Both the position numbers and the translations under genes were made by a program. From a virus (lineage: Duplodnaviria; Caudoviricetes): a stretch of DNA of 59,237 bases. The stretch lies in the IMG/VR virus record IMGVR_UViG_3300036852_000085, positions 1 to 59,237 of that record. One strand, 5' to 3'. The notes under the pieces are model-generated. The model was not told where the DNA came from, made no database searches, and saw only the letters and a list, made by a program, of their open reading frames with translations. Shown here one piece after another: positions 1 to 59,237 of this stretch; position 1 is the stretch's first letter; each line of letters starts with the position of its first letter.

Positions 1-103
1 GCGCCCGTGTGTCCAGTCTAGCTCAGGGTCCCACGGTGAGCTGAGAGCCCCCGTCCGGCCTGGTCTACATAGGGCGTGAGGGGCTCTCTGTGAGCAGGGG
101 AAA
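1..103. repeat. 103-bp perfect inverted copy of 4360-4462
   Basis: gcgcccgtgtgtccag...gcaggggaaa is the exact reverse complement of 4360-4462; identity breaks at 104/4359. Confidence 0.97.
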
Positions 104-460
104 GCCCCCGTCCGGGGGTCACCCAGACGGGGGCTGCGCCTCATGCGGCCGGGCGACTCACCTCCCGTACGTACCGGGCCCGGGCGTGCCGGAGCGCGGT
201 GCGCAGGAACACGGGGTAGTAGTCCCCCATCCCGGCTGTGGCCAGGATCTGCCAAGCCTCATGCGGCTTCCCGGCCTGGTGTGCGGTCCGGGCCCTGGTC
301 AGGACACGATGCCGCTCAGCTGGCCGGGGGTACTTGATATTGGGCTACTTAGACTCCACTGTGGACACTCCCAACTGCGCCAGCCACGGTGGCTGGCAGC
401 GTGCGCGCACGGGGGTCTGAGCCCTACCCGGCCCGATGGCCGATGCGTGCGCGCCTCTGG

Positions 461-589
461 TCAGCGACGGCGCATGCGCCGCACGGCCAGCCAGAGCAGG
501 AACGCTCCGGCCAGCCCGATGACCAGGGCCGGCCCCCGGGGTAGCCCGTGGGCCGGCTGAGCGGCCAGAATGGCGCTCAGTGCGGCCAT
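461..589 (-). CDS. 42-aa single-TM peptide (MAALSAILAAQPAHGLPRGPALVIGLAGAFLLWLAVRRMRRR)
   Basis: Translated by hand (below ORF-track cutoff); GGGAG RBS, hydrophobic helix followed by a basic tail. Confidence 0.55.
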   Translation of the reverse strand: MAALSAILAAQPAHGLPRGPALVIGLAGAFLLWLAVRRMRRR

Positions 590-705
590 GACTCCCACCC
601 TCCCGCGCCGAAGACGATCACGGTCAGCGCGGTCAAGCCGAGCCAGGCAGTACAGATCAGACCCGGCACGGACCTGAGAGGGCCCGTACGCTTCTCTGAC
701 GTCAT
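577..705 (-). CDS. 42-aa membrane peptide (MTSEKRTGPLRSVPGLICTAWLGLTALTVIVFGAGGWESWPH)
   Basis: Translated by hand; purine-rich upstream sequence, one TM segment, overlaps the next small gene. Confidence 0.5.
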   Translation of the reverse strand: MTSEKRTGPLRSVPGLICTAWLGLTALTVIVFGAGGWESWPH

Positions 706-750
706 ACCCTGCCCATCCTTCCTCCGAGCGTCGTTCGCGCCCGTACGGCT

Positions 751-782
751 CGACCAGGGCCCCCAGATGCGGGCCCTGGTCG
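751..782. terminator. 12-bp GC hairpin downstream of 804..1364
   Basis: cgaccagggccc-N8-gggccctggtcg. Confidence 0.55.
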
Positions 783-803
783 ACCGCTACCGGTACGACT
801 GAC

Positions 804-1364
804 TCAGGCGATCCGGAAGTGCCGCAGCCATGTCACATGTCCATGACTGCACCGGTCCCCCGCGTTGCCTGCCTTCACGGTGCCTGCGATGACACACCCG
901 TCCGTGCACACCAGGGCGTAGTCGCGAACGCCGGTGGTTGCCCACCGGCCGCCCTGGCACATGACGCACGTACACGTCAGCTCAGGCTCTGACGGCTCCT
1001 CGGGGCCATCGCAGCCATTACAGTGATCTTGGTTGCAACCGTCGCACGCCTTTACGCAGTGCTCACAGTCGCACGAGTGGCCGACGCACCCATTGCCGTC
1101 ACCCCCACTGCCGCGACACTCGCCACACTCGCACTCGCACTCATGCCCCGAGCACGAGCCATCGTTGCCGCAACAGCCACACTCACAGGTACATGTGTGC
1201 TGCGGCGCGGGACGCTGGGCTAGCGCCGCGTCCTGGTCGACATGGTCGGCCGGGACCCCGGGGCTGTCAGTGATCGCTCCGATGTAGTCACTTCGAAGCA
1301 TGTAGTTCAGCGACGTGTCGTCTGGCCGATCCGTTGTTGGGGCCGGCCAGTCCTGGACCGTCAT
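804..1364 (-). CDS. Cys-rich metallothionein-like hypothetical protein
   Basis: GGAGGG RBS; CTCECGCC..C..HECECECGEC..C..HSCDCEHC..CDGC..HCNGC cluster plus a C-terminal CTCxxC/CSH region. Confidence 0.75.
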   Translation of the reverse strand: MTVQDWPAPTTDRPDDTSLNYMLRSDYIGAITDSPGVPADHVDQDAALAQRPAPQHTCTCECGCCGNDGSCSGHECECECGECRGSGGDGNGCVGHSCDCEHCVKACDGCNQDHCNGCDGPEEPSEPELTCTCVMCQGGRWATTGVRDYALVCTDGCVIAGTVKAGNAGDRCSHGHVTWLRHFRIA

Positions 1365-1404
1365 GGTCCCTCCATTCTAGACAGTCCTATGTGGACCGTT
1401 CCGG

Positions 1405-1457
1405 GGGTAGGGGAGGTGCCGACCCTCGACCGTCCCATGTGGACGGATCCCCTACCC
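1405..1457 (-). ncRNA. 53-nt D-armless tRNA-like structured element, copy 1
   Basis: 8-bp closing stem, 5-bp stem with 7-nt CACAUGG loop, 4-bp stem with GUCGGCA loop; covaries with copy 2. Confidence 0.6.
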
Positions 1458-1462
1458 GTTGA

Positions 1463-2215
1463 TCAGTTGTTGCGACGACGCTCGCCGTACCGGTTGATCC
1501 CGGCGCGGTTGTACCCGTGGATGTCGAACCCTCGGGTGTTGAACCCGTCCCGGTCGTACCCGTCCCGGTCGTACCCGTGCCGGTCCCGGCGCGTTCCCTC
1601 TTCGCCACGGTCGAACCCGTTCAGGTTGTACCCGTCCGGGTCGTAGCCGTTCGCGTCGTACCCGTTGCGGTCCCGCCCGTCCGGTGCCAGACCAGTCAAC
1701 CGGTCGTACTGCTCACGCGTCCAGCCACGGGCGTCCGTGCCGTTGCGCGACCAGCCATCGGCGTCGACGCCGTCACGGTTGAACCCGTCCGCGTCGTACC
1801 CGTACCGGTTGTACCCTTCCCGGTCGAGCCCCGTGTTGACATGGAACCCTTCGGAGTTGTACCCCTCCGGGCCCACGCCCCGGCAGTCCAGCCCGGCAGC
1901 GTCGCGCCACACGGGTCGGCCCTCACTGTCGGTCACGGTGCCTACCGGCTCGGGACCCTCTGGGTAGAGCCGGTGCAGGACCATTGACAGCTCGGCGCAC
2001 CACCCACGGGCCCGGCCCTCGTTCACGGCCCTGTCCACCACGCGGGCTTTCTGGGCCAGAAGCGCCCCGATCGTCTCATCCGAGACGGTCCGCTCGCCCG
2101 GTGCCCCGATCCACACCCCGCCGATCGCGTCGTGCTCGGTCGTCAGGGAACGCCATGGCTCGGTAGCGGCCGGGATCTCGGTGTCCAGCGTCGCCGTCTT
2201 GCTTTGGTCGGACAT
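1463..2215 (-). CDS. Hypothetical protein with tandem GYDxDG(F/Y)N repeats
   Basis: GAAAGG RBS before MSDQSK (start trimmed from 2353); repetitive C-terminal half. Confidence 0.8.
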   Translation of the reverse strand: MSDQSKTATLDTEIPAATEPWRSLTTEHDAIGGVWIGAPGERTVSDETIGALLAQKARVVDRAVNEGRARGWCAELSMVLHRLYPEGPEPVGTVTDSEGRPVWRDAAGLDCRGVGPEGYNSEGFHVNTGLDREGYNRYGYDADGFNRDGVDADGWSRNGTDARGWTREQYDRLTGLAPDGRDRNGYDANGYDPDGYNLNGFDRGEEGTRRDRHGYDRDGYDRDGFNTRGFDIHGYNRAGINRYGERRRNN

Positions 2216-2369
2216 GATCCAACCTTTCTCCGCCCCGGCACACTCGGCCGGGGGGTCTGCCGGTTCCCCCGGGGGCTCTGAGAGCGTCCGCCCGGGGGTC
2301 CCGTACGCGCCACGGTGGGGGTCTGAGCCCTGAGCGCCCCGTAGGCGCGTCACCGTGGCTGTGCTGCTC

Positions 2370-2777
2370 CTAGCCCTCCTGAGTGGCCATGAACCGCTCA
2401 GTGGCCGCCAAAGCGGCCGCAGTGGCGGCCCTCAGGTCGGCCAGGATCTGCGCGGCATCGGTCGCCGAGCTGTCGGCCGCCGGCTCGGTGGTCGACTGGA
2501 CCAACTCCGCGCTCACCAGGACGAGATCGCGAACCTTGCTGGCCGGCTCGGCACCAAACCGAGCGTCACGCGCCAGACCGGCAACGTGGTTCTCGAGGGT
2601 GTCCGCGCCGTCGTACACGTACGACATCGTGATCACGCTGGTCGCCGTGACCAGCTCGAAGTCCCCGACTCCCGTGTTGAACGCCATGGCCTGGTCGATC
2701 AGGTCCCCGATCAGTCCGCTGTCGTCCAGTTCGGGTGCCGTGTCGATCGAGAACCGCACGGTGAGCTTGTGAGCCAT
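2370..2777 (-). CDS. Hypothetical protein
   Basis: GAGGAG RBS before MAHKLTV; GC3-rich codons. Confidence 0.75.
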   Translation of the reverse strand: MAHKLTVRFSIDTAPELDDSGLIGDLIDQAMAFNTGVGDFELVTATSVITMSYVYDGADTLENHVAGLARDARFGAEPASKVRDLVLVSAELVQSTTEPAADSSATDAAQILADLRAATAAALAATERFMATQEG

Positions 2778-2824
2778 GATCTTTGTCTCCTCTGGCTGTG
2801 CCGGGACCATCCCGGCCGCGCCGC

Positions 2825-2877
2825 GCCACCGTGGGGTGCCGACCCCCGACCGTCCCATGTGGACGGATCACGGTGAC
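2825..2877 (-). ncRNA. 53-nt D-armless tRNA-like structured element, copy 2
   Basis: 35-nt core identical to copy 1 at 34/35 positions; completely different but paired outer stem. Confidence 0.6.
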
Positions 2878-2883
2878 TGCCTG

Positions 2884-3051
2884 TCATGCTTCGATGATCA
2901 CTGAATCGTGACCCGTGGCCGCAAGTTCTCGGCCGGACCGCCATACCTCCCGGATGTCAACATGCCAACCGCGCTCACGGCTGACCGCGAGCATGACTGG
3001 AAGATCCTCGTCAAACTCAGCCAGGATGGCGATCAGCTGACCGACCGTCAT
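2884..3051 (-). CDS. Small phage hypothetical protein (MTVGQLIAILAEFDEDLPV)
   Basis: Common phage MTVxELIxxLxxxDxDLPV-type N-terminus; TGATG coupling to the upstream gene. Confidence 0.7.
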   Translation of the reverse strand: MTVGQLIAILAEFDEDLPVMLAVSRERGWHVDIREVWRSGRELAATGHDSVIIEA

Positions 3052-3356
3052 CACAGCCCCCGGTTGAGACAGGCGATCGAGATCGCACGCTCGGTGTAGC
3101 CCCGGGGGTCGCTCGGTTCCTGGACCAGGCACCGAGCAACCGGGAAGCCGAGGTCATCGACCCCCGACCAGTCCAGGATGATCACCGGGATGGCGCCCCG
3201 GTCGTCCGTGAGGTGCGGCAGACAGGCGTTGCTGGTCACGGCCAGCGCTTCACGCTGAGCCATGACGTCTGCGTTGATCATTTGTAGCCCTCGATCCTCC
3301 GGTCCCATGGCCGGTGGCTCCCAGCCTCCTAGCGACCAGGGGGCTGGGACCGTCAC
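3051..3356 (-). CDS. Hypothetical protein
   Basis: ORF in the co-oriented minus-strand array. Confidence 0.6.
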   Translation of the reverse strand: MTVPAPWSLGGWEPPAMGPEDRGLQMINADVMAQREALAVTSNACLPHLTDDRGAIPVIILDWSGVDDLGFPVARCLVQEPSDPRGYTERAISIACLNRGL

Positions 3357-3366
3357 ACCATGGGCC

Positions 3367-3747
3367 CTACGCCCATCCGAACGGGCGAGCGTTCGGCTCG
3401 TCCGTGCTCACGGGCAGCGCCAGCGTCTGCTCCGGCTGGGCCGGCTCGGTGCCCGCGTAGTCGCTGCTGCGCGGGTCCATCATCAGTGAGTGCCGCTCGA
3501 TCGCGCCAGCGATGTTGCGGAAGCACTCCTGCGCCTGGTCGACGCTGTCGTGCGGGTGGAGCGTGGTCGCGCCGTCCGGGTCGGCAATCGTCACGATCAT
3601 CGTTCCGATACGGCCGGCCATGAGCGGCGCGGGACCGTTGCTGTCCAGCGTGAATCCCGCCACCCATTGGTCCCAGCCGTCCGGCTGGCCGATCCAACGG
3701 GCGTAGTCTGTGCGGGTCATGCCGGCCAGTGCCGCTTTGATGTCCAT
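3367..3747 (-). CDS. Hypothetical protein (MDIKAAL...)
   Basis: GGAG RBS before ATG 3747; start trimmed from 3951. Confidence 0.7.
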   Translation of the reverse strand: MDIKAALAGMTRTDYARWIGQPDGWDQWVAGFTLDSNGPAPLMAGRIGTMIVTIADPDGATTLHPHDSVDQAQECFRNIAGAIERHSLMMDPRSSDYAGTEPAQPEQTLALPVSTDEPNARPFGWA

Positions 3748-4359
3748 TGTGGACACTCCATTTCTCCGGTCTGACGACCGGGCACAGCGCCGGGACCCTG
3801 GGGGGGCCCGGCACCATGCTCGATCAGCGACCCTGAGTGTCCGGGAACGGGTAGCGCCCCGTGGGGTTACCCGTGGTAGGCGTACCGGGCTGGCCCATGT
3901 CCTGGCCAGTCCGGTCCCGGCCGGGGGGCCGGGAGTCGCCTGAGGTGTCACGTGACGTCTTCTTCGCCATCGTGTGGTTCCCTTTCTGGCGTTGGCAGCG
4001 TGCCAGCGTCCGTGACCAGGGATGGAGTCGAACCATCATCCAATCGGGCGCATGCCGCGCCGCCATGTGCGCTCCCGTTGCGCCTGGTCATTGCGTGTCC
4101 ACTGTGGAGTTTTCAAGGTACTGTTTGCCCTGGCCGCGCCTCCGGATCGCCCATCGGGCGCCGCGCCAGGCTATGCTCGGATGTGCGGTGGTTCGATGCG
4201 CCGTAGGCCTTGACTCCCCCGGGCTCTTGCCGTCCCGAGATCCGCGCTGTGCCGTTCGGTGCTCCGCTAGCCTAACCCCCCTCCCCCCTGAAAACCTCAT
4301 ACTTTCGGCTGATTCTTAACCAGCCATTCGGATGATACCGAGACATAGATCATTTACTA

Positions 4360-4462
4360 TTTCCCCTGCTCACAGAGAGCCCCTCACGCCCTATGTAGAC
4401 CAGGCCGGACGGGGGCTCTCAGCTCACCGTGGGACCCTGAGCTAGACTGGACACACGGGCGC
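4360..4462. repeat. Left edge of segment R; inverted copy at 1-103
   Basis: Exact reverse complement of the window start. Confidence 0.97.
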
Positions 4463-4494
4463 TCAGCTCAGCCCAACGCTCAGCTCAGCCCAAC
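4461..4494 (+). repeat. 17-bp tandem duplication gctcagctcagcccaac x2
   Basis: Seen directly, at the point where the inverted copy stops. Confidence 0.85.
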
Positions 4495-4832
4495 CGGATA
4501 CCCCCCCCTCCCCCATTCGGCCAAGGCCTCAGTCTGTCCAGATAGGACAGTACACATAGGACACATAGAGATCCTTGATCATGAAGCCCAGCCCGACCCG
4601 AGCCCCCCTGTCCCCCTCACGTGCTGCGCCAGCCCAGACCTGAGCCCCCAACGCTCAACCCTGGGCCAGCCAAGAGGGAAATGATCATGGATCAGTTGTC
4701 CTGGCCTGCAAAGCCCAGCCTAACTTCTGACTACACCATAATCCCATGGCTCTTCTTCGATGTCTTGGATCGAGGGGTCTGGGTTGGCTGGGCCTGACGG
4801 GTGTCCTTGCCTCCATGGACTTATAAACATTG

Positions 4833-4893
4833 ATGTGCATCTTGATATGCATCTTTAAACCATGTGCATCTTCGACCTGGAAACATGTGCATC
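4833..4893 (+). promoter_or_regulatory. Four ATRTGCATC boxes upstream of the terS-like gene
   Basis: Copies at 4833, 4845, 4862 and 4885 in an AT-rich patch. Confidence 0.65.
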
Positions 4894-5256
4894 ATGACCG
4901 AGGTCGTGATCAACGGGATCACCGAGGAACAGATCAGCCAGGACGCACCTCGGATGAGGGCCCTGCTGGCCATGAGGTACGAGAAGATCTGGCAGACCTG
5001 CGAGCCGCACATCAACGGTGACCGTCAAGCCAAAGGACTGGGCAGCGATCCTCGCTTCATCGAGGCGGGGATCAGAGTGCTCAGGGATCTTGGGCGGCTG
5101 TACAAGCTGGACCGTCCCAGCCCTGGGGAACTGGTGCAGGCTACCGGGGTGGACGTGGCGGCGCTGGTGTCCACGCGCCTGGCTGAGCTGGAGGCTCGGA
5201 TGAGCCAGGCTGATCCTGGCCCGGGGGAGGCTGGGGAGCAGGAGACTCGTAGCTGA
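4894..5256 (+). CDS. Putative terminase small subunit-like helical protein
   Basis: DPRFIEAGIRVLRDLGRLYKLDRP resembles the C-terminal helical motif of actinophage TerS proteins; no TerS candidate lies beside terL. Confidence 0.45.
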   Translation: MTEVVINGITEEQISQDAPRMRALLAMRYEKIWQTCEPHINGDRQAKGLGSDPRFIEAGIRVLRDLGRLYKLDRPSPGELVQATGVDVAALVSTRLAELEARMSQADPGPGEAGEQETRS

Positions 5257-5527
5257 TCGGCACCCAGGTACGAGTTGCGCTGTCCAGAGTGAAGGCCTGG
5301 AGCAGCAGCACACCGGTCTTCTTGTTGAACTTCGTGCGTAGCCGGTCCTGGCCCAGGCTGAAGCGGCGCAGGGTCCGGTAGGCGCGTTGCCTGAAGGTGG
5401 CGACGTCCTCGTGGAAGTCCTGGCCGAGGGTCAGTTCCCACAGGTGGCCGTTGAGCCAGTCGACCCACGGGTAGTCGAAGTCTTCATCTCGGACAATTCG
5501 GTCGCGTGGACCGCGAGAGGTCGCCAT
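5141..5527 (-). CDS. Hypothetical protein (YPWxxWLxGxxWEL family-like)
   Basis: TACACT -10 hexamer 8 nt upstream of ATG 5527; the 3' end overlaps the convergent gene. Confidence 0.65.
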   Translation of the reverse strand: MATSRGPRDRIVRDEDFDYPWVDWLNGHLWELTLGQDFHEDVATFRQRAYRTLRRFSLGQDRLRTKFNKKTGVLLLQAFTLDSATRTWVPISYESPAPQPPPGQDQPGSSEPPAQPGAWTPAPPRPPR

Positions 5528-5552
5528 GGCCGCCGAGTGTAGCAGTAGTTCC

Positions 5553-5767
5553 GTAGAACCGTAAAACCGTAGAACCAATCTAGCCAAGATCAACTAAGAA
5601 AGCCCAGGTCAAGAGCTAGAGTTTTTTCGGTTTTATGAGACTGGTCAGAATCGGAAAGGGTAGGTAGTTAAAAGGGGTTGTCCGATTTGCCCTGGTCTGT
5701 GCTCGGGCCTCAGATTCTGTGGCCGCTACTTTCCTTTCGGGAGAATCTCATAAAACCGAAGAAACAA
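5553..5767. other. AT-enriched non-coding region, candidate origin or packaging site
   Basis: gtagaacc/gtaaaacc short repeats; 15-bp inverted repeat ttcggttttatgaga (5626-5640) / tctcataaaaccgaa (5746-5760). Confidence 0.4.
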
Positions 5768-5885
5768 TTTAGTGGGTGAAATGTCCCTGAATGTTCCCCT
5801 GGGGATCCTGGAGTCCTTAGCTTACTTCCAGGGGGAGGGGTATGGGAGTATAGTGGGGGGATGAAGACTGTGAGTGTGAGCTGGG
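5768..5885. repeat. Right edge of segment R; 118-bp inverted copy at 59120-59237
   Basis: Exact reverse complement of the window end. Confidence 0.97.
5826..5860 (+). promoter_or_regulatory. Leaderless sigma-A-type promoter with CCAGGGGGAGGGGTA box
   Basis: TTCCAG-N17-TATAGT-N6-ATG(5861); no SD sequence. Confidence 0.65.
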
Positions 5886-6454
5886 ACCTGGACCTTGTCG
5901 AAGAGATGGCCAAGGCCATCCGGGAGGCCCGGTTCCCTGGACATGGGACGACCTGGGAAGACACGCCCGCTAGGGCCCGGGGCTCGTATCTACGAGAGGC
6001 CGAAGCAGTGCTCAACGTCCTTGCCCAGGCCAAGGTCAAAGAAGAGGAGGCCCAAGCGAAGCAGTCTCTGCTTACTGAAGATCAGTTAGCTGAGCTGCTC
6101 CATAACGCCTATAAGCAGTACTACGGCTCAGTTCTGCCGCTATGGAAAGACCTGTCAGGATCAACAAAGGGTTCATACGTGGCAATGGCTAAGGCCATCC
6201 TGGTCGCCGGCCAGGAGCCGGCCACCGTTTCCGCAGCAGCAGTAACGACTATCCGTCAGGTAGGTCCTAACCTGCCTGACGGAATCCAGGAATGGATGTG
6301 GGTTGGCATAGGCGAGAATGCCAGGGCATTCTTGCTTTCCTCCGAGACGGCCGCTGAGACGTTCCTCCGCGAAAACGTGAATCGTCAGATTTTCAAGGTT
6401 CGCATCGTCGAGGCTCGACGGCACCACATAGCTCTCATCCCCAGCGATGAATAG
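5861..6454 (+). CDS. Hypothetical protein with an internally duplicated helical motif
   Basis: Two E-[ML]A..[IL].....W.D......SY...A.A[VI]L units. Confidence 0.8.
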   Translation: MKTVSVSWDLDLVEEMAKAIREARFPGHGTTWEDTPARARGSYLREAEAVLNVLAQAKVKEEEAQAKQSLLTEDQLAELLHNAYKQYYGSVLPLWKDLSGSTKGSYVAMAKAILVAGQEPATVSAAAVTTIRQVGPNLPDGIQEWMWVGIGENARAFLLSSETAAETFLRENVNRQIFKVRIVEARRHHIALIPSDE

Positions 6455-42015: not shown

Positions 42016-42743
42016 CACGCCACCTTCCGGTCCACGATTGTGATGCGGCAGCGACATCCGCACACTTCATCTGCTGGAGCTATTGGATCACCTGGGGTCA
42101 GCATCGGGAAGCCTCCCACTATGAACGGGGAACCCAGGTCCTGAATGTCTCCATCCACAGCCCTGTGGGTATCCCGGACCCGGGGATCATGCTCGGTGTC
42201 CCAGCGCTTGGCCAACGACTTGCCGGTTACTCGGGACTGTTCCATCCCGGCGGCAAGCGTGCCCACGCCGTAAGCCCTCGTCGTCTCGGTTTGTGCGATA
42301 GTCCGAGCCCGAGCAGGCCAGTTCTGCGACCCCGACCAATCGAGTACCAGATCCACCCGGTGCGCAATCTGGTCCACACTCTGACCCGCGTTGATGCCAT
42401 CAGTGATCTCCGCGAACACCAGGTGGTACACCTCATCCGGGATCCGGACCAGGTAGTTACGGGTCTTGGCCAGGGACGCCATGATGAACGCGTGCCGGGA
42501 CACCGGTGGTACATCGCTGGCCTCACTCCACGCCGCCAGGGAGATCTGCCCAATATGAGTCAGGATCGTTTCGACGTCAGCGTTCCAGGTCGCCTGGGTC
42601 ATAGGGATACCTGTTGGCGTGGGCATGACGTGGAACTGGTGGAACGGCTTCATGACCGCTGTCCGGGCCCGGACCAGCCATGCTCGTAGCGACTGCTCCA
42701 CGATTCGCAGCAGGCTCTGCTCGTTTTCATCACGGGTTGGCAT
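42015..42743 (-). CDS. MuF-like minor head protein
   Basis: RARTIAQTE, KRW...D.RVR.TH and PGDP....E..GCRC. Confidence 0.9.
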   Translation of the reverse strand: MPTRDENEQSLLRIVEQSLRAWLVRARTAVMKPFHQFHVMPTPTGIPMTQATWNADVETILTHIGQISLAAWSEASDVPPVSRHAFIMASLAKTRNYLVRIPDEVYHLVFAEITDGINAGQSVDQIAHRVDLVLDWSGSQNWPARARTIAQTETTRAYGVGTLAAGMEQSRVTGKSLAKRWDTEHDPRVRDTHRAVDGDIQDLGSPFIVGGFPMLTPGDPIAPADEVCGCRCRITIVDRKVA

Positions 42744-44646
42744 TCATGAACCCGCGTTCGGTCAATAGATCCCGTAGGCGGTCGATCCGGTGGGGCTTAC
42801 TTTCCAGGAGCAGATCCGTGCAGTATTCGTGCAACGCGGATTGAAGATCATTCGGGTTGACCCGGATAGCCAGTGTTTCCACAGTCTCCCGGAGCTGGTC
42901 GAAGGCTCCGTTAAGCAACGTGCCCGCCCGCTCCCGGCCCGCCACGATCACCTTGGTGTGCAGCTCATGCGCTGGGACGTCCATGTGCTGTCCCCGCGTA
43001 CTGGCGGTCAGGGTGCGCTTGCCGGCCAGTTCCATGGCCCGCATCACGCTGGCATGCGAAGTGACCAGAACAGACCAGGGGTCAGCGACTGACGTTGACG
43101 CAGTGATCCCGCTCGGCGGAGCTGTGGGAGACGGGCCACTGGTCCTGGGCTCGGGGCCGCCAGGAGCGTTGGCCGCCGTGGAGTTGACCGGTACTGGCGG
43201 TGGAGCTGTGGGCACAATGCCGGTTGGCGGTGCCGGTGGGGCTGGTGGTCCTGAACCCTGTTGGCCCTGGATGACGGTGGCAGCCGGCAAGACTTCTTCG
43301 GTATAACCAGCAACCTTGCGAACTGCCGCGTTCTGGAACAGCGTGGGGTCGCGCAGCATCAGCTCCCGGGTGAACCGCATCAGGACTTCCTCGTCGCTGG
43401 GGGCGTCCGACTTGGCGTAGTCGCCGGCCAGTCGAACTGCTTCCGCGCTGACCAGCGGGTAGGGAGCATTGAACAGGTTCAGGGTGTCGGTGAGGCGCTG
43501 TGGCCGGAAAGTCAGGGGTGCTGTGTCGTACCAGAAGATGAAACGGTCCGGGTCTTCCTTGAGGGCTTTGAGACCGGGTTTGAGGTAACCGATAGTGAAA
43601 GCGTCGCAGGCACGCTTCATCAACGGCTCAATATGGATCTTGATCTGACCCTCGATGATCTGCCAGGATCCCCAGTGGTTGGCCCCCGCGACGCCGTTGA
43701 TCAACGATGGGTCGATGTCCATGGCCACTGCGAACCGCTGGATGGCCTCCTTGCGTAACTCCAACGCCTGCTGAGACAGCTCAGAGGTGAACTGGATCAG
43801 ATTGATCTTGCCCAGGGCTTCCAGGGGCATCTCCACGAAGGTGGGCACAACGCCAGCGGCGGTACCCTCACCCTTCAGGGACGCTGACCCGGTCTTCATC
43901 AGAACCTCGGTCAGCCCGGCGCCACCCGTCTCCGTGGAATCCGGGAAGCTGATGTCCTTCGGGATCGGCATCAGGCCGGCTGACACCAGACGCGAGTCGA
44001 TCTGAGCAAACACGAACCGGGTCAGCCGCTCGATTTCCCACAGCATCGGCATCGCGGCCCGGGTTGGCGAATCGGCCCACAGGTTACGCCGGGGGTGAGG
44101 GGTCCACACCCGAATGACAATGTCCTTGTTCTTGTCCAGGACGTCCTTGCTGCCATCGGGATAGAGCTGCATAACGTTGCCGCCCCAACGCTTCAGCTCG
44201 GAGCAGCTCACCACGAACCATTCGTCCGACTCTCCATCTTCGGCCCCCTTGCCGACGATGTAGGCGTCTCCCGCGATGGTCAGGTTGATGCCCAACATCC
44301 GCATGGCCTCGGCTTTGGACGTTGGTGAGCCGAACAGCGTGTCAGCTAGGGCCGCGATCTTCGGCTTCTCGCATTCCTTCTGGATGCGGCCATTCTTGTC
44401 GACCTCAGCAACGTAGATACGAACCTGGGAAAGCGCGGATCCGATCCAGTTGGCTACGAAGCGCAGCTCGCCGATGATGTCGTAGAGACGCCACGCTTCC
44501 TGCTGCCAGGTGTCGTCACCGAACTTGTAGCTGCGCCATCCCTGCCCATCGAGGTTGAGTCGAGCGGCGGAGGCTATGAGACTCTTCGGTGCCGTGTGGG
44601 CCGGTGCGACATCGGGGGTCTTGTGCCGGTCCAGGAATCGTGCCAC
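42730..44646 (-). CDS. Portal protein
   Basis: WQ.EAW..YD.IGEL, RVW.PHPR....ADSP, SRL..AG and NHW.SW; synteny. Confidence 0.9.
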   Translation of the reverse strand: MARFLDRHKTPDVAPAHTAPKSLIASAARLNLDGQGWRSYKFGDDTWQQEAWRLYDIIGELRFVANWIGSALSQVRIYVAEVDKNGRIQKECEKPKIAALADTLFGSPTSKAEAMRMLGINLTIAGDAYIVGKGAEDGESDEWFVVSCSELKRWGGNVMQLYPDGSKDVLDKNKDIVIRVWTPHPRRNLWADSPTRAAMPMLWEIERLTRFVFAQIDSRLVSAGLMPIPKDISFPDSTETGGAGLTEVLMKTGSASLKGEGTAAGVVPTFVEMPLEALGKINLIQFTSELSQQALELRKEAIQRFAVAMDIDPSLINGVAGANHWGSWQIIEGQIKIHIEPLMKRACDAFTIGYLKPGLKALKEDPDRFIFWYDTAPLTFRPQRLTDTLNLFNAPYPLVSAEAVRLAGDYAKSDAPSDEEVLMRFTRELMLRDPTLFQNAAVRKVAGYTEEVLPAATVIQGQQGSGPPAPPAPPTGIVPTAPPPVPVNSTAANAPGGPEPRTSGPSPTAPPSGITASTSVADPWSVLVTSHASVMRAMELAGKRTLTASTRGQHMDVPAHELHTKVIVAGRERAGTLLNGAFDQLRETVETLAIRVNPNDLQSALHEYCTDLLLESKPHRIDRLRDLLTERGFMNANP

Positions 44647-44649
44647 GGG

Positions 44650-44931
44650 CTACTCCCTGTCCAGCATGAGTCCGCTCAACATCGATGCTGCCGGGATGGC
44701 CAGCGCTGCGATGATCCACTTGTTGGGCCAGATGGTAGCAACCGGCATAACAGGCAACGCCACCCAGATGGAGGTGCACCAGGGACAATGAGCCAGATAG
44801 GCCATCTTCGACTTCTCGCCCCAACGGTTCACTACCCAGCGTCGGTATGCGATGGTCAGCTCATCCTCGACAAGCAGCCTCGTGATCCTGGCCGTAGCCA
44901 GGACAGCAATGATCAAGGAAAGAACCAGCAC
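44650..44931 (-). CDS. DUF1360-like membrane protein
   Basis: LATARITRLL..D and CPWC.SIW; leaderless TACAGT-N6-GTG. Confidence 0.82.
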   Translation of the reverse strand: MLVLSLIIAVLATARITRLLVEDELTIAYRRWVVNRWGEKSKMAYLAHCPWCTSIWVALPVMPVATIWPNKWIIAALAIPAASMLSGLMLDRE

Positions 44932-45181
44932 GTTAATACTGTAAGCGGATCAAGTACGCAAGCGATAGTTCTCCCTTCCCGGCCCAACCCGTGGCGAACT
45001 GGACTCCCAGGGGTGGTGGTATCAGTTCTCCTGTGTTAGCGTGGGTCACGGAGGATGCGAAGGGAGACTCAGATCGGTCATCTGACGGCAGATCTGAAGG
45101 ATCGTTCCTCTGACGGCTGCACTGCGAGGTGGATGCCGGCGGAGGGTACCCCGCATTAGCTGCCGGGGTACCCTCCAACAA

Positions 45182-45244
45182 GGATCGGTAGCTCAGTGGT
45201 AGAGCACACATGTGGTGTCATAGGTTCAATTCCTTTCCGATCCA
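45182..45244 (+). ncRNA. tRNA-like RNA lacking a normal anticodon arm
   Basis: GGATCGG/CCGATCC acceptor stem, GCTC-AGTGGTA-GAGC D arm, GGTTCAATTCC T arm; only 13 nt for the anticodon plus variable region. Confidence 0.8.
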
Positions 45245-45314
45245 CGGGACGCTGACATACCGGGCGCCTGACACTCCAGATATGGAGTCCCATGATCAGG
45301 CATGTATGTCACCT

Positions 45315-45388
<74 letters not shown>

Positions 45389-45409
45389 CTCCCTCTAGGT
45401 AGGGTCCAG

Positions 45410-45445
45410 GGAGGGGCACGCGGCAGGCAGCAGGCGTGCCCCTCC
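45410..45445. terminator. Hairpin between the tRNA and the convergent terL
   Basis: ggaggggcacg-N14-cgtgcccctcc. Confidence 0.65.
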
Positions 45446-45450
45446 TCTGA

Positions 45451-45466
45451 TGTTTCACGTGAAACA
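45451..45466. promoter_or_regulatory. parS: Perfect consensus parS site
   Basis: TGTTTCACGTGAAACA inside a 28-bp perfect palindrome (45445-45472). Confidence 0.88.
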
Positions 45467-46903
45467 TCAGAGAAGGTTTCCAAGATCGTAGAAGCCCTGG
45501 TTCATGTCCAGGCGGTACTGGGACGGGTCAGACACCCGCATCCGCTTCTTCTCTCCAGCCATGAGTTCCCGGCAGGCGTGGACCATACCGTCCATCCTGT
45601 CCGGGGACTCTCTGGTTGAGGCCGGGTCATACATGACGCACTGAGCTTCCAGCTCTTCCATAATCCCCACGAAGTGAAGTCGCCCCTGCTCCGAGCGCAT
45701 GGCCACCGGCTCGGCTCTGGTCTTCTTGCCGACCCTGGAGTCCACGCCCTTCATGGGTGGACTGGTTGAGACAGGGAACAGGCCTTCCTCGACCAGCTCG
45801 TAGTAGGCGTCGCGGAGGACTTCCTCCATCCAACGCTTCCCGAGGTTCGTCTCGTAGACCATGATGTCCGCGCCGAACTCAGCAACGGTACGCCACATAT
45901 GCAGCGCCGCTGAACGGCCGGTACCGGGCACGGAGCGGTCAGCCAGGATGTACATGTGATCATCGGCGGTCCGGCAGGCTACGACAATCCCTGTCTCGGC
46001 GCTGTCTCCGGTGAGGTTCGGGTCAACCCCGACCACGGTAGAGATGATCGCGTCAGGAGTACTCCAAACTCGATAGGTAACGATGTCCATCCGTTTAAAG
46101 AGGCCACCGCCTGACAGCTCCAGCAGTTTTCCGTACAGCTCCTGCTCTCCCAGAGCAGTACCGTCATAGCGGCGTCGCAGTTCTCGCAGTACGGGTCCTG
46201 ACAGATTTGTTGCGTTGTCAAAGGTTGATCCGGTAATGATGTGGACGGATCCGTCGTCACGGCTGAGCCACTCCTGAAGTAACTTGATCGGCTTGGGGGT
46301 GGTGGTGACGAAGGCGCGCGGATGATCGTTGATCAGGTCCGCGCGCAGAGCTGGCATGAGGCCCTGCTCCCACGTCTCCGAAGGCTTGAGCCACATGGCC
46401 ATCTCGTCGCAGAGAATGCCGGCGGCGTTGTACCCACGACCAGTGTCCGGGTCGTCCGCGCCCTCCATGTATATCTTGGCACCCTCAGGAAACAGGATCA
46501 TGGGGCGCGGAGACTGCTTGTATCTGTGATCAACCTTTCGCCTGGTCAGGACGTTCAGGATCCCCGAGGGTCCCTCACAGTTGATGACCCGGGCATCAGC
46601 CAATGTGTTGGCTACGACTAGCCATTCGGTCGGGTTGCCGTGCGAATCGAACGGGTGCCTGATGACCGAATCGACGATCCATTCCGAACCCGAACGGCTC
46701 TTGCCAGCTCCTCGGCCGGCCATGTAGAGGATGATGAAGGCCAGGAAGGCTGGACCCCAGGGTGGAATCTGCTCTGGCCGGGCGACGAACCACCATTCTC
46801 CGCGCAGCATCTCCAACAGTACGTTTTCCGGCATCTCCGCGATGAGTACTTCGCGTTCATCTGCCGGAAGTTTCGCCATACGTTGAGCGATGGAGAGGGC
46901 CAC
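45467..46903 (-). CDS. terL: Terminase large subunit
   Basis: Walker A AGRGAGKS, Walker B ILCDE, TTTP coupling motif, nuclease VVGVDP and SPDRMD. Confidence 0.95.
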   Translation of the reverse strand: MALSIAQRMAKLPADEREVLIAEMPENVLLEMLRGEWWFVARPEQIPPWGPAFLAFIILYMAGRGAGKSRSGSEWIVDSVIRHPFDSHGNPTEWLVVANTLADARVINCEGPSGILNVLTRRKVDHRYKQSPRPMILFPEGAKIYMEGADDPDTGRGYNAAGILCDEMAMWLKPSETWEQGLMPALRADLINDHPRAFVTTTPKPIKLLQEWLSRDDGSVHIITGSTFDNATNLSGPVLRELRRRYDGTALGEQELYGKLLELSGGGLFKRMDIVTYRVWSTPDAIISTVVGVDPNLTGDSAETGIVVACRTADDHMYILADRSVPGTGRSAALHMWRTVAEFGADIMVYETNLGKRWMEEVLRDAYYELVEEGLFPVSTSPPMKGVDSRVGKKTRAEPVAMRSEQGRLHFVGIMEELEAQCVMYDPASTRESPDRMDGMVHACRELMAGEKKRMRVSDPSQYRLDMNQGFYDLGNLL

Positions 46904-58669: not shown

Positions 58670-59144
58670 GATGTCCCTCCTTCAGTTCCATCAACTTCTG
58701 CTCTACGTCGATTTGTCTGGAAAGCACGACTGCGGCCCTGATCTGGGTCAGCTGAAGAAGAGCCTCAGCGAACTCCTCGCTGCCCTCGATCTCGGCACCC
58801 TCGACGCCATCGGTGATCGGGCAGTCCTTATGGTCCAGTTCGTGGTGATACAGGGTGACCAGGACGTAGCAGTCCGGACGCCCCGGTACGTTCGGGTGGC
58901 AGAGGGGTTCACCGTTGAGTGACCCCCAGCCACTCTCGGCGTCTCCGCAAGGACGGCCGCAGTGTGCACAGGCAGGTAGAGGCATACGGACACTCCTAAA
59001 TGTGGGAGTAATCGGGCATTTCTTCGCGTGAAGGAACTCGGCGTCGGCCAGGATCTTCAACATCTTGGCCAGCGACCTAATCCTCCGGTACGGCCTGGTG
59101 GTCAGGGCACACCCATCAGCCCAGCTCACACTCACAGTCTTCAT
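58659..59144 (-). CDS. Zn-binding hypothetical protein; starts at 59144 (shared MKTVSVSW) or 58985
   Basis: CAHCG..LCHP...PDCY..VT motif; AGGAG RBS before MPLPAC at 58985. Confidence 0.7.
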   Translation of the reverse strand: MKTVSVSWADGCALTTRPYRRIRSLAKMLKILADAEFLHAKKCPITPTFRSVRMPLPACAHCGRPCGDAESGWGSLNGEPLCHPNVPGRPDCYVLVTLYHHELDHKDCPITDGVEGAEIEGSEEFAEALLQLTQIRAAVVLSRQIDVEQKLMELKEGHLDQ

Positions 59145-59237
59145 CCCCCCACTATACTCCCATACCCCTCCCCCTGGAAGTAAGCTAAGGACTCCAGGAT
59201 CCCCAGGGGAACATTCAGGGACATTTCACCCACTAAA
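59120..59237. repeat. 118-bp perfect inverted copy of 5768-5885
   Basis: Exact reverse complement, including the promoter and first 8 codons. Confidence 0.97.

Follow-up and report, generated by a model that had tools for sequence, protein, structure and literature searches.

Classical terminators are largely missing from high-GC hosts, and few data exist on cutting, stabilisation or insulation within the early operons of actinophages. In the early mRNA of phage T7, RNase III sites take the form of repeated, related irregular stems in the gaps, and cutting leaves a protective hairpin at the 3' end. In plant mitochondria, non-canonical tRNA-like folds known as t-elements lie beside coding regions and were found through the motif GGTTCRANYCC (Forner et al. 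2007, PMC1920247); cutting at their borders by RNase P and RNase Z is described in that work as proposed and, for some, as shown, and minimal stem-loops are also discussed there as signals. RNase P accepts as substrates model hairpins that comprise acceptor stem, T stem and T loop (McClain et al. 1987, as related in PMC11143913). For actinobacteria, structures at gene ends that lack a U-tract are presented as an unresolved topic in PMC3993855, which reports that they caused no termination in vitro by mycobacterial RNA polymerase, whether or not NusA and NusG were added, and offers stabilisation or processing as alternatives. Here we describe the Y-elements, a real, uncatalogued, lineage-restricted and modular family of structured elements found behind the stop codons of a minus-strand operon, within a 4.3-kb segment, in the genome of an uncultured soil actinophage (IMG/VR record IMGVR_UViG_3300036852_000085; Duplodnaviria, Caudoviricetes), the whole 59,237-nt stretch of which was analysed and is referred to below as the window.

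The initial annotation of this DNA had pointed to two 53-nt structures on the minus strand, copy 1 at 1405-1457 and copy 2 at 2825-2877, whose sequences and coordinates proved exact. Both are real, and the count of two was incomplete: a covariance model of copies 1 and 2 (R1), run over the whole window with filters off, recovered these two at 83.2 and 82.5 bits together with a 51-nt copy 3 at 2309-2359 (35.7 bits, expectation value (E) 4.9e-6) and a 52-nt copy 4 at 403-454 (22.1 bits, E 0.0072), both likewise on the minus strand, which brings the number in the operon to four. R1 gave 44 matches at E<=10, the next full-length one after copies 1-4 having an E of 0.21; with a covariance model of all four copies (R2), these were the only matches in the window below E 0.1.

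Each copy consists of an outer stem enclosing two hairpins. In copy 1, hairpin 1 carries the GTCCACAUGGGAC palindrome and hairpin 2 has the loop GUCGGCA. Copy 2 has the same interior within a different yet paired outer stem; copy 3 has an outer stem near to that of copy 2 (alike at 8 of 9 positions in one arm and 7 of 9 in the other), a different hairpin 1 and a hairpin 2 with the loop CUCAGAC; and copy 4 joins a new outer stem and a new hairpin 1 to a hairpin 2 identical to that of copy 3. The make-up is therefore modular, with the interior common to copies 1 and 2, the outer stem to copies 2 and 3, and hairpin 2 to copies 3 and 4. The core that copies 1 and 2 have in common (1415-1449 and 2835-2869) spans 35 nt at 97% identity, and the exact 17-nt hairpin is found in the window in these two copies only. 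RNAfold predicts a Y shape for both, at -30.8 kcal/mol for copy 1 (z -2.76; 1 of 200 shuffles as good) and at -29.5 kcal/mol for copy 2 (z -1.80; 10 of 200 shuffles as good). The shape alone is unspecific, as a loose scan for it returned 69 places in the window, many of them within genes.

Placement with respect to the genes is regular. Copies 1 and 2 start 5 and 6 nt past the TGA codons of genes C and A, in line with the initial annotation, and end 40 and 47 nt ahead of the ATG codons of genes D and B, respectively; copy 3 starts 10 nt past the TAG of gene B, and copy 4 starts 6 nt past the TGA of a small gene at 461-589.

The fold is borne out by changes that preserve pairing. When copies 1 and 2 are aligned, all 40 pair cells are standard and 7 of the 20 pairs change on both sides, six in the outer stem and one in the T-like stem, just as expected from the earlier description of an outer stem replaced yet still paired and of a swap in the T-like stem; 9 of 500 shuffles were as good, and slid controls gave at most two such pairs. 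Across the four copies, in an alignment fitted to the model, pairing holds in 97.5% of 80 cells and both partners change in 11 of 20 pairs, which was reached by none of 500 shuffles. The consensus that RNAalifold returned for four members is a Y whose outer stem has 9 bp, with 6 bp in hairpin 1 and 3 bp under the 7-nt loop of hairpin 2.

A further member was found outside the window. A metagenome scan with an alignment of gene C and its homologue in the relative G038 left 79 loci, most of which match the repeat domain only. R2 applied to these loci (536,844 nt) gave two matches, at 643-694 in locus L282 and at 1170-1221 in locus L283, and the two elements are identical to each other (47.7 bits, E 2.8e-8). 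L282 is a distantly related soil-phage contig, one of four loci with a full-length homologue of gene C, and shares two of six tested open reading frames (ORFs) with the window, namely gene C and a second small gene. Its element lies on the coding strand, starting 7 nt past a TAG and ending 16 nt ahead of an ATG, with GGAGG between the two; it has a new outer stem with every position paired and a hairpin 1 of unrelated sequence, and its hairpin 2 reads GGG-GUCGGAA-CCC. A viral scan with a 140-residue protein of L282 found no relative.

Copies 1-4 and the L282 element were then treated as five distinct members and aligned with MAFFT, blind to structure. In this alignment pairing is kept in 89 of 90 cells, and both partners change in 11 of 18 pairs (22 cells), a result that 0 of 500 shuffles reached and of which slid controls attained at most four pairs. 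Covariation falls on the outer stem, where 7 of 9 pairs covary, and the hairpin-2 stretch is nearly constant, a combination which argues that the head formed by hairpin 2 is recognised, beyond a requirement for mere stability. The pairs G1-C53 and G9-C45, two G-C pairs of hairpin 2 and the loop residues U, C and G are invariant. In every member, outer stem and hairpin 2 together provide a 12-bp stack (8+4 or 9+3 bp) under a 7-nt NUCRGMM loop, so that this part of the geometry proposed initially holds throughout the family, and in all five the 3' strand of hairpin 2 abuts that of the outer stem with zero unpaired bases. Every member lies on the coding strand, 5-10 nt past a stop codon, with hairpin 2 on its 3' side; hairpin 1 is exchangeable.

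The Y-elements correspond to no Rfam entry, either at the gathering score over the window or at E<=10 in window positions 1-6000, which agrees with the earlier statement that they belong to no known RNA family. A literature search by motif strings and by the topics of tRNA-like structures, RNase P and phages found, supplements aside, no paper that describes them.

The reading that we favour, at about even confidence, is that Y-elements are modular intercistronic RNA elements, each built on a three-way junction, that would mark cistron boundaries by processing or by protection of 3' ends. Each of them would be transcribed within a polycistronic minus-strand mRNA, as suggested by the strand of the genes and by the absence of promoter-like sites between them: the minus strand gave no sigma-70-like promoter between operon genes, and the one site in window 1-6000 is at 5847-5874. 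Beginning 5-10 nt past the stop codon, each transcript would fold into a freely varying 9-bp outer stem, a variable hairpin 1 and a conserved hairpin 2, whose GGG/CCC stem and 7-nt NUCRGMM loop would stack on the outer stem to give 12 bp. This stable fold, with its putatively recognised hairpin-2 head, would set the 3' end of the preceding cistron and shield it; it may in addition guide endonucleolytic cleavage between the cistrons, and would keep the untranslated gap folded. Hairpin 1 would act as an exchangeable insert, carrying the clade-wide palindrome GTCCACAnnGGAC in copies 1 and 2. The remaining gaps of the operon are likewise occupied by stable hairpins, and in L282 the slots equivalent to those of copies 1 and 4 hold plain hairpins of 10-13 bp, which points to a generic boundary role for which tRNA likeness would not be needed.

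Several observations weigh against this reading. The window has about 80 uncultured relatives with portal proteins 37-72% identical to its own, and the covariance-model search for homologues suggested in the initial annotation, which yielded covarying members in the window and in L282 and L283, gave none in the portal relatives examined. R1 applied to 48 of these relatives matched two records at E<=1, both through just the 15-17-nt hairpin; R1 and R2 run unfiltered on the corresponding segments of relatives reached best E-values of 0.17 and 0.08 (for R2, in six loci totalling 81,172 nt); and a third model, R3, run on 50 records, gave matches at E<=0.1 in seven, all partial (33-56 nt). The lack of members in relatives makes an essential function in this phage group unlikely. 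Moreover, four of the five members are paralogues of one genome, and a few duplication or conversion events could lie behind part of the covariation. Both strands fold about equally well, the plus-strand folds of copies 1-4 having predicted energies of -30.4, -27.2, -31.2 and -32.0 kcal/mol against -30.8, -29.5, -29.3 and -28.9 kcal/mol for the minus strand, and G-U pairs leave the strand undecided: the G-U pair that had been taken to favour the minus strand is not decisive, with one minus-strand U-G in copy 2 and, in copies 3 and 4, an A-C at that position which corresponds to a plus-strand G-U. Transcription through the elements and any cut at them are predictions, and a purely DNA-level role keeps a real share of the probability.

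The palindrome GTCCACAnnGGAC that forms hairpin 1 in copies 1 and 2 is a motif in its own right; it also stands alone and recurs in relatives in either orientation. The form GTCC-N5-GGAC is found 8 times in the window against 2.69 expected, and none of 100 shuffles reached 8. ACA-centred sites cluster in window positions 354-4562; with one mismatch allowed, this form is found at 354, 1384, 1432, 2852, 3742 and 4097, and in the reverse sense at 4550. Among these sites, a stand-alone hairpin with a GTCCACAUAGGAC core (1380-1401, minus strand) separates copy 1 from the ribosome-binding site of gene D and is matched by R1 at 16.1 bits over model positions 9-30, and a GTCCACAAUGGAC hairpin (3742-3754, minus strand) contains in its loop the AUG of the minus-strand gene at 3367-3747. 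The loops of the lone hairpins read ACAUA, ACAAU and ACAGU. Two motif variants with one altered arm, at 354-366 and 4097-4109 on the minus strand, form a mirror pair, the second of them 8 nt upstream of a tRNA-like element. The corresponding 16-nt sites (354-369 and 4096-4111), which are GTCCACAGTGGAC variants near the two ends of the segment, are mutually inverted save for the central base and could represent paired operator or recombination sites.

In relatives, the 13-nt motif clusters in the equivalent segments of G038 (six sites), G007 and G010, and it occurs at least twice in each of 19 loci fetched by a 17-nt pattern that matched 96 stretches. Usually it tops a longer stem, the lower part of which is variable yet paired, and it is usually preceded by a terminator-like hairpin or tRNA-like element and followed by the next ribosome-binding site. 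The motif is antisense to the genes in G007. In G053 (the record of L212), positions 42038-46139 hold five units of about 100 nt, each made up of a short hairpin and a 39-nt hairpin with the motif at its tip, and the loop is flipped in one of the five. In locus L321, two 13-nt palindromes stand head to head, 2 nt apart, right after the stop codon of the gene C homologue (2702-2741), so forming a 28-nt perfect palindrome. Orientation relative to genes is mixed across 19 IMG/VR loci as judged with a crude gene caller that we do not trust. As the orientation of the motif is not fixed, a double-stranded DNA site is favoured, and we predict from the sequence that GTCCACAnnGGAC is most likely the binding site of a phage regulator. 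When the exact 15-nt hairpin core was sought in IMG/VR, 72 stretches matched and none had shared flanks, and these were set aside as chance matches.

Other candidate elements and roles were tried and rejected. Positions 3300-3352, 14 nt past the TAG of the gene at 3367-3747, were considered as a fifth Y-element; the best fold there is a long bulged hairpin plus a small one, and both R1 and R2 miss the site. A coding role was examined through the AUG in the hairpin 1 loop, which in copy 1 opens a 25-codon frame ending in ATGA on the start of gene D and in copy 2 is in frame with gene B but has no ribosome-binding site; copies 3 and 4 and the L282 element have no such AUG. Plus-strand ORFs running across the copies are antisense to well-supported genes, and the core gave no sigma-70-like match that would make it a promoter.

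Likeness to tRNA was assessed by both search and signature. The Rfam tRNA family (RF00005) gave no match at the Y-elements at the gathering score, nor at E<=10 in window 1-6000, and ARAGORN at default thresholds called zero genes in 1-6000 in its bacterial and mitochondrial (arm-less) modes; lowering the mitochondrial mode to an 80% threshold produced 116 overlapping calls, that is, noise. Agreement with the T-arm signature GGTTCRANYCC extends to 8 of 11 positions in copies 1 and 2 and the L282 element and to 9 of 11 in copies 3 and 4. Loop positions 2-4 (U, C, R) agree with T-loop positions 55-57; the equivalents of U54 and A58 are G or C and G, respectively, in all five members, and the 54/58 pair is lacking. 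There is no conserved discriminator or CCA, position -1 being C, A, A, G and A, and the branch point follows after 8-9 bp, not 7. Membership in the tRNA family, as implied by the initial description, therefore finds no support in these searches or in the partial signature. Ribozyme families, among them self-cleaving three-way-junction types such as the hammerhead, gave no match either, at the gathering score in the window, at E<=10 in 1-6000 or at E<=1 in five loci of relatives.

A different kind of tRNA-like structure does occur at the head of the operon. The pseudo-gene at 4013-4089 (minus strand) has a 7-bp acceptor stem and a canonical T arm that matches GGTTCRANYCC in full, and is called by ARAGORN under relaxed settings only and not by Rfam. 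Similar pseudo-genes are present in relatives (G038, 62543-62612 and 63108-63176; G010, 1212-1274(-); L241, 4712-4774(-); G022, 636-711(-)), in early small-gene segments; they combine a canonical T arm and a paired 7-bp acceptor stem with otherwise irregular arms, and are called neither by ARAGORN at default settings nor by Rfam. A survey of long hairpins found T-loop-like loops in 20 of 1055, a figure that includes both strands and duplicates, has a rough expectation of about 8 and is not counted as evidence. Elsewhere in the genome, a 63-nt tRNA at 45182-45244(+), scored at 51.7 bits by Rfam and missed by ARAGORN, adjoins the tRNA-Met gene at 45315-45389.

These data bear on two explanations that start from tRNA. 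In one, the stack would mimic the acceptor/T-arm half of a tRNA, with cuts by host RNase P and RNase Z at the 5' and 3' borders, respectively, freeing monocistronic mRNAs and a 53-nt RNA. The occurrence of the 12-bp stack in all five members, the invariant G1-C53 pair, the T-arm-like 3'-proximal position of hairpin 2 and the agreement in loop positions 2-4 are consistent with this, and the occurrence, in segments of this kind, of tRNA-like pseudo-genes whose T arms are canonical keeps a processing role for tRNA enzymes possible; precedents are the minimal acceptor/T hairpins cut by RNase P, as given in PMC11143913, and the t-elements of plant mitochondria, which work in this way according to PMC1920247. 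The partial T-arm signature with its wrong U54 and A58 equivalents, the lack of a conserved discriminator or CCA, the branch after 8-9 bp and the negative Rfam and ARAGORN searches, mitochondrial mode included, argue otherwise, as do the plain hairpins in the equivalent slots of L282, whose loops do not fit the T-arm signature. The only Y-like candidate with a canonical T loop, at 3523-3571 in L321, was rejected as not significant (R2, E 0.03-0.04; R3, no match at E<=0.5). We consider punctuation by tRNA enzymes a minority possibility, conceivable though unlikely, and the initial interpretation as a whole to be partly supported. An extended version, which we hold only tentatively and likewise think improbable, is that the Y-elements are a reduced counterpart, in a bacterial virus, of mitochondrial tRNA punctuation, in which the 12-bp acceptor/T-like stack recruits host RNase P or RNase Z to cut the early polycistronic mRNA behind stop codons, that the GTCCACAnnGGAC hairpin, inserted at the junction in some copies, lets a phage regulator switch this cutting, and that the degenerate tRNA-like genes with perfect T arms are older members of the system; if true, such switching would turn the stability of individual cistrons on or off. 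The second explanation is that the elements are released as tRNA-Met decoys against anticodon nucleases, an idea suggested by the CAU of copies 1 and 2, which occupies the middle of a 7-nt loop closed by a 5-bp stem, and compatible with the presence of a real tRNA-Met in the phage. The loop concerned, CACAUGG, is limited to these two of the five members and belongs to the separate palindrome, and the remaining hairpin 1 loops are unrelated and 3-6 nt long, so that the reading of CAU as a Met anticodon does not carry over to the family. Furthermore, copies 1 and 2 have A where an anticodon arm has U33; RNAfold prefers a 6-bp stem with a 5-nt loop for this hairpin; no tRNA score was obtained; and the hairpin also occurs alone with other loops and, in relatives, in both orientations. 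The decoy idea is accordingly disfavoured, and we think it extremely unlikely.

The remaining explanations place the function at the level of DNA or of transcription. The core could be a protein-binding operator within an intergenic palindrome, serving repression or a roadblock of early transcription, with the Y shape as a by-product. This is in keeping with the enrichment of GTCC-N5-GGAC in the window, the clustering of the motif in the equivalent segments of relatives and its unfixed orientation in G007, G053 and L321; with phiC31, in which the core CTCACGTGAG occupies 15 sites and in several cases caps a longer complementary stem; and with the Cluster O mycobacteriophages, for which PMC4351075 describes more than 30 copies of a 17-bp dyad repeat and predicts binding by a dimeric protein. 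An operator accounts for hairpin 1 of copies 1 and 2 only; it fails for copies 3 and 4 and the L282 element, which keep the Y without the motif, and a protein site needs no complementarity at non-conserved flanks, yet the stems covary. Nor is the motif the phiC31 repeat: a proposed resemblance between GTCCACAnnGGAC and that repeat was dropped after TCCACAnnGGA gave zero matches in phiC31. As an explanation of the elements as such, we judge the DNA-level reading unlikely. Stable GC-rich structures directly past stop codons might instead be intrinsic terminators or attenuators without a U-tract, or factor-dependent ones, each gene then being its own transcription unit; hairpin clusters in this position have reportedly been proposed as terminators in one study, and terminators without a U-tract are said to exist in the phiC31 early region. 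No U-tract follows any copy (the 3' flanks are CCGGAAC, GCGGCGC, GCGUACG and ACGCUGC), U-tract terminators are absent at the Y-elements, with the two terminator-like sites of window 1-6000 both lying elsewhere, no promoter-like site follows the elements to restart transcription, and recombinant mycobacterial RNA polymerase needs a U-tract in the assays reported in PMC3993855; we regard termination as distinctly improbable. Finally, the elements could be selfish or recombinogenic palindromic DNA, akin to repetitive extragenic palindromic (REP) sequences or cassette junctions, that spreads in the segment and marks points of gene exchange. The modular make-up of the copies, the presence of the ORFan gene B between copies 2 and 3, the restriction of the family to a lineage and the mosaicism of the segments, with two of six tested ORFs shared by L282, fit such a picture; there are no conserved terminal repeats, target duplications or associated transposase or recombinase, and the strictness with which the elements follow stop codons on the coding strand, in two unrelated contigs, speaks for selection on expression. 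We see this as very unlikely.

The genes that the Y-elements separate all lie on the minus strand. Gene A (2884-3051, 55 residues) is upstream of copy 2; gene B (2370-2777, 135 residues), an ORFan, lies between copies 2 and 3; gene C (1463-2215, 250 residues) between copies 3 and 1; gene D (804-1364, 186 residues, Cys-rich) is downstream of copy 1; and the small gene at 461-589, which encodes a membrane-like protein of 42 residues, is upstream of copy 4. No Pfam or PHROG family was found for genes A-D and two neighbours. Gene C consists in part of about 20 five-residue G-[YF]-[DN]-x-x repeats, visible in the DNA as a 15-nt periodicity, and has homologues in G038 (36% identity), L282 and L283; in the metagenome scan, 271 of 461 pattern-matching stretches encode gene C relatives, in samples from soil, sludge and gut. 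Protein D has four homologues besides itself in a large protein collection (33-56% identity), and when it is aligned with three of them, 17 cysteines are invariant and a C-x-H-G-H-V motif is conserved near the C terminus; searching metagenomes with the alignment of protein D homologues found no relative.

The genome (59,237 bp, the whole IMG/VR record) is estimated to be 91% complete and has a G+C content of about 61%. Its major head protein is 45% identical to that of the Actinoplanes phage phiAsp2, and the other named matches are also phages of Actinobacteria; DNA searches of the region, near and distant, against named phages gave no match. The 103-nt contig end at 1-103 is a perfect inverted copy of 4360-4462, and the 118-nt end at 59120-59237 is a perfect inverted copy of 5768-5885, which fits a repeat of about 1.5 kb (4360-5885) flanking the 4.26-kb segment 104-4359 in inverted orientation. 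Run X1 contains separate contigs over 74-4389, 4360-5885 and 5856 onward, and in run X2 a single contig joins the reverse of 1-322 directly to 4463-5885. The contig depth over the repeat is 18.2, not double that of its neighbours (13.3 and 17.3), and the arrangement may stem from an assembly effect, from an invertible segment or from the presence of two copies; among the relatives, G036 carries a flag for inverted terminal repeats. Read mapping of runs X1 and X2 showed zero differing letters across the Y-elements, and run X3 contains a relative about 90% alike that spans 1399-1632.

With four natural variants in one operon and an independent one elsewhere, the Y-elements provide a testable handle. 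If tRNA-processing enzymes were found to act on them, tRNA punctuation would extend from organelles to bacterial viruses; otherwise they would still constitute an RNA motif which Rfam 15 does not contain and which can help to annotate the genomes of soil phages. Set apart from the Y fold, GTCCACAnnGGAC is a candidate regulator site common to a group of uncultured phages.

Compared with the systems described above, the Y-elements resemble each in part. In phiC31, whose repeat binds a repressor, the early operon of an actinophage likewise has variable complementary stems in the gaps that follow stop codons, each topped by a conserved palindrome, a likeness limited to the GTCCACAnnGGAC hairpin, that is, to hairpin 1 of copies 1 and 2; the phiC31 core (CTCACGTGAG) is different, and its structures are simple hairpins with no second conserved hairpin and no junction. 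A motif repeated ahead of at least eight early genes of phiC31 (L281, NC_001978) has GTCGGCAACCC on the strand that does not carry those genes. Its similarity to hairpin 2 of copies 1 and 2, whose orientation to the genes is the reverse, is probably coincidence. The 17-bp dyad repeats of Cluster O phages, as described in PMC4351075, are like the GTCCACAnnGGAC motif only, having invariant inverted arms around a variable centre, many mostly intergenic copies and no fixed orientation; they differ in sequence and, by that description, do not lie inside a larger conserved fold. With the RNase P model hairpins of PMC11143913 the Y-elements have in common a 12-bp helix and a 7-nt loop, and they differ in having a side hairpin, a non-canonical loop and no 3' RCCA. 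The likeness to t-elements is found in the pseudo-gene at 4013-4089, with its canonical T arm and irregular remainder, whereas the Y-elements reach 8-9 of the 11 positions of the T-arm motif, lack the 54/58 pair and have a bacterium as host. The T7 RNase III sites are single bulged hairpins, in contrast to the three-way junctions of the Y-elements; what the two have in common is the presence of related stem structures in the gaps of a polycistronic mRNA.

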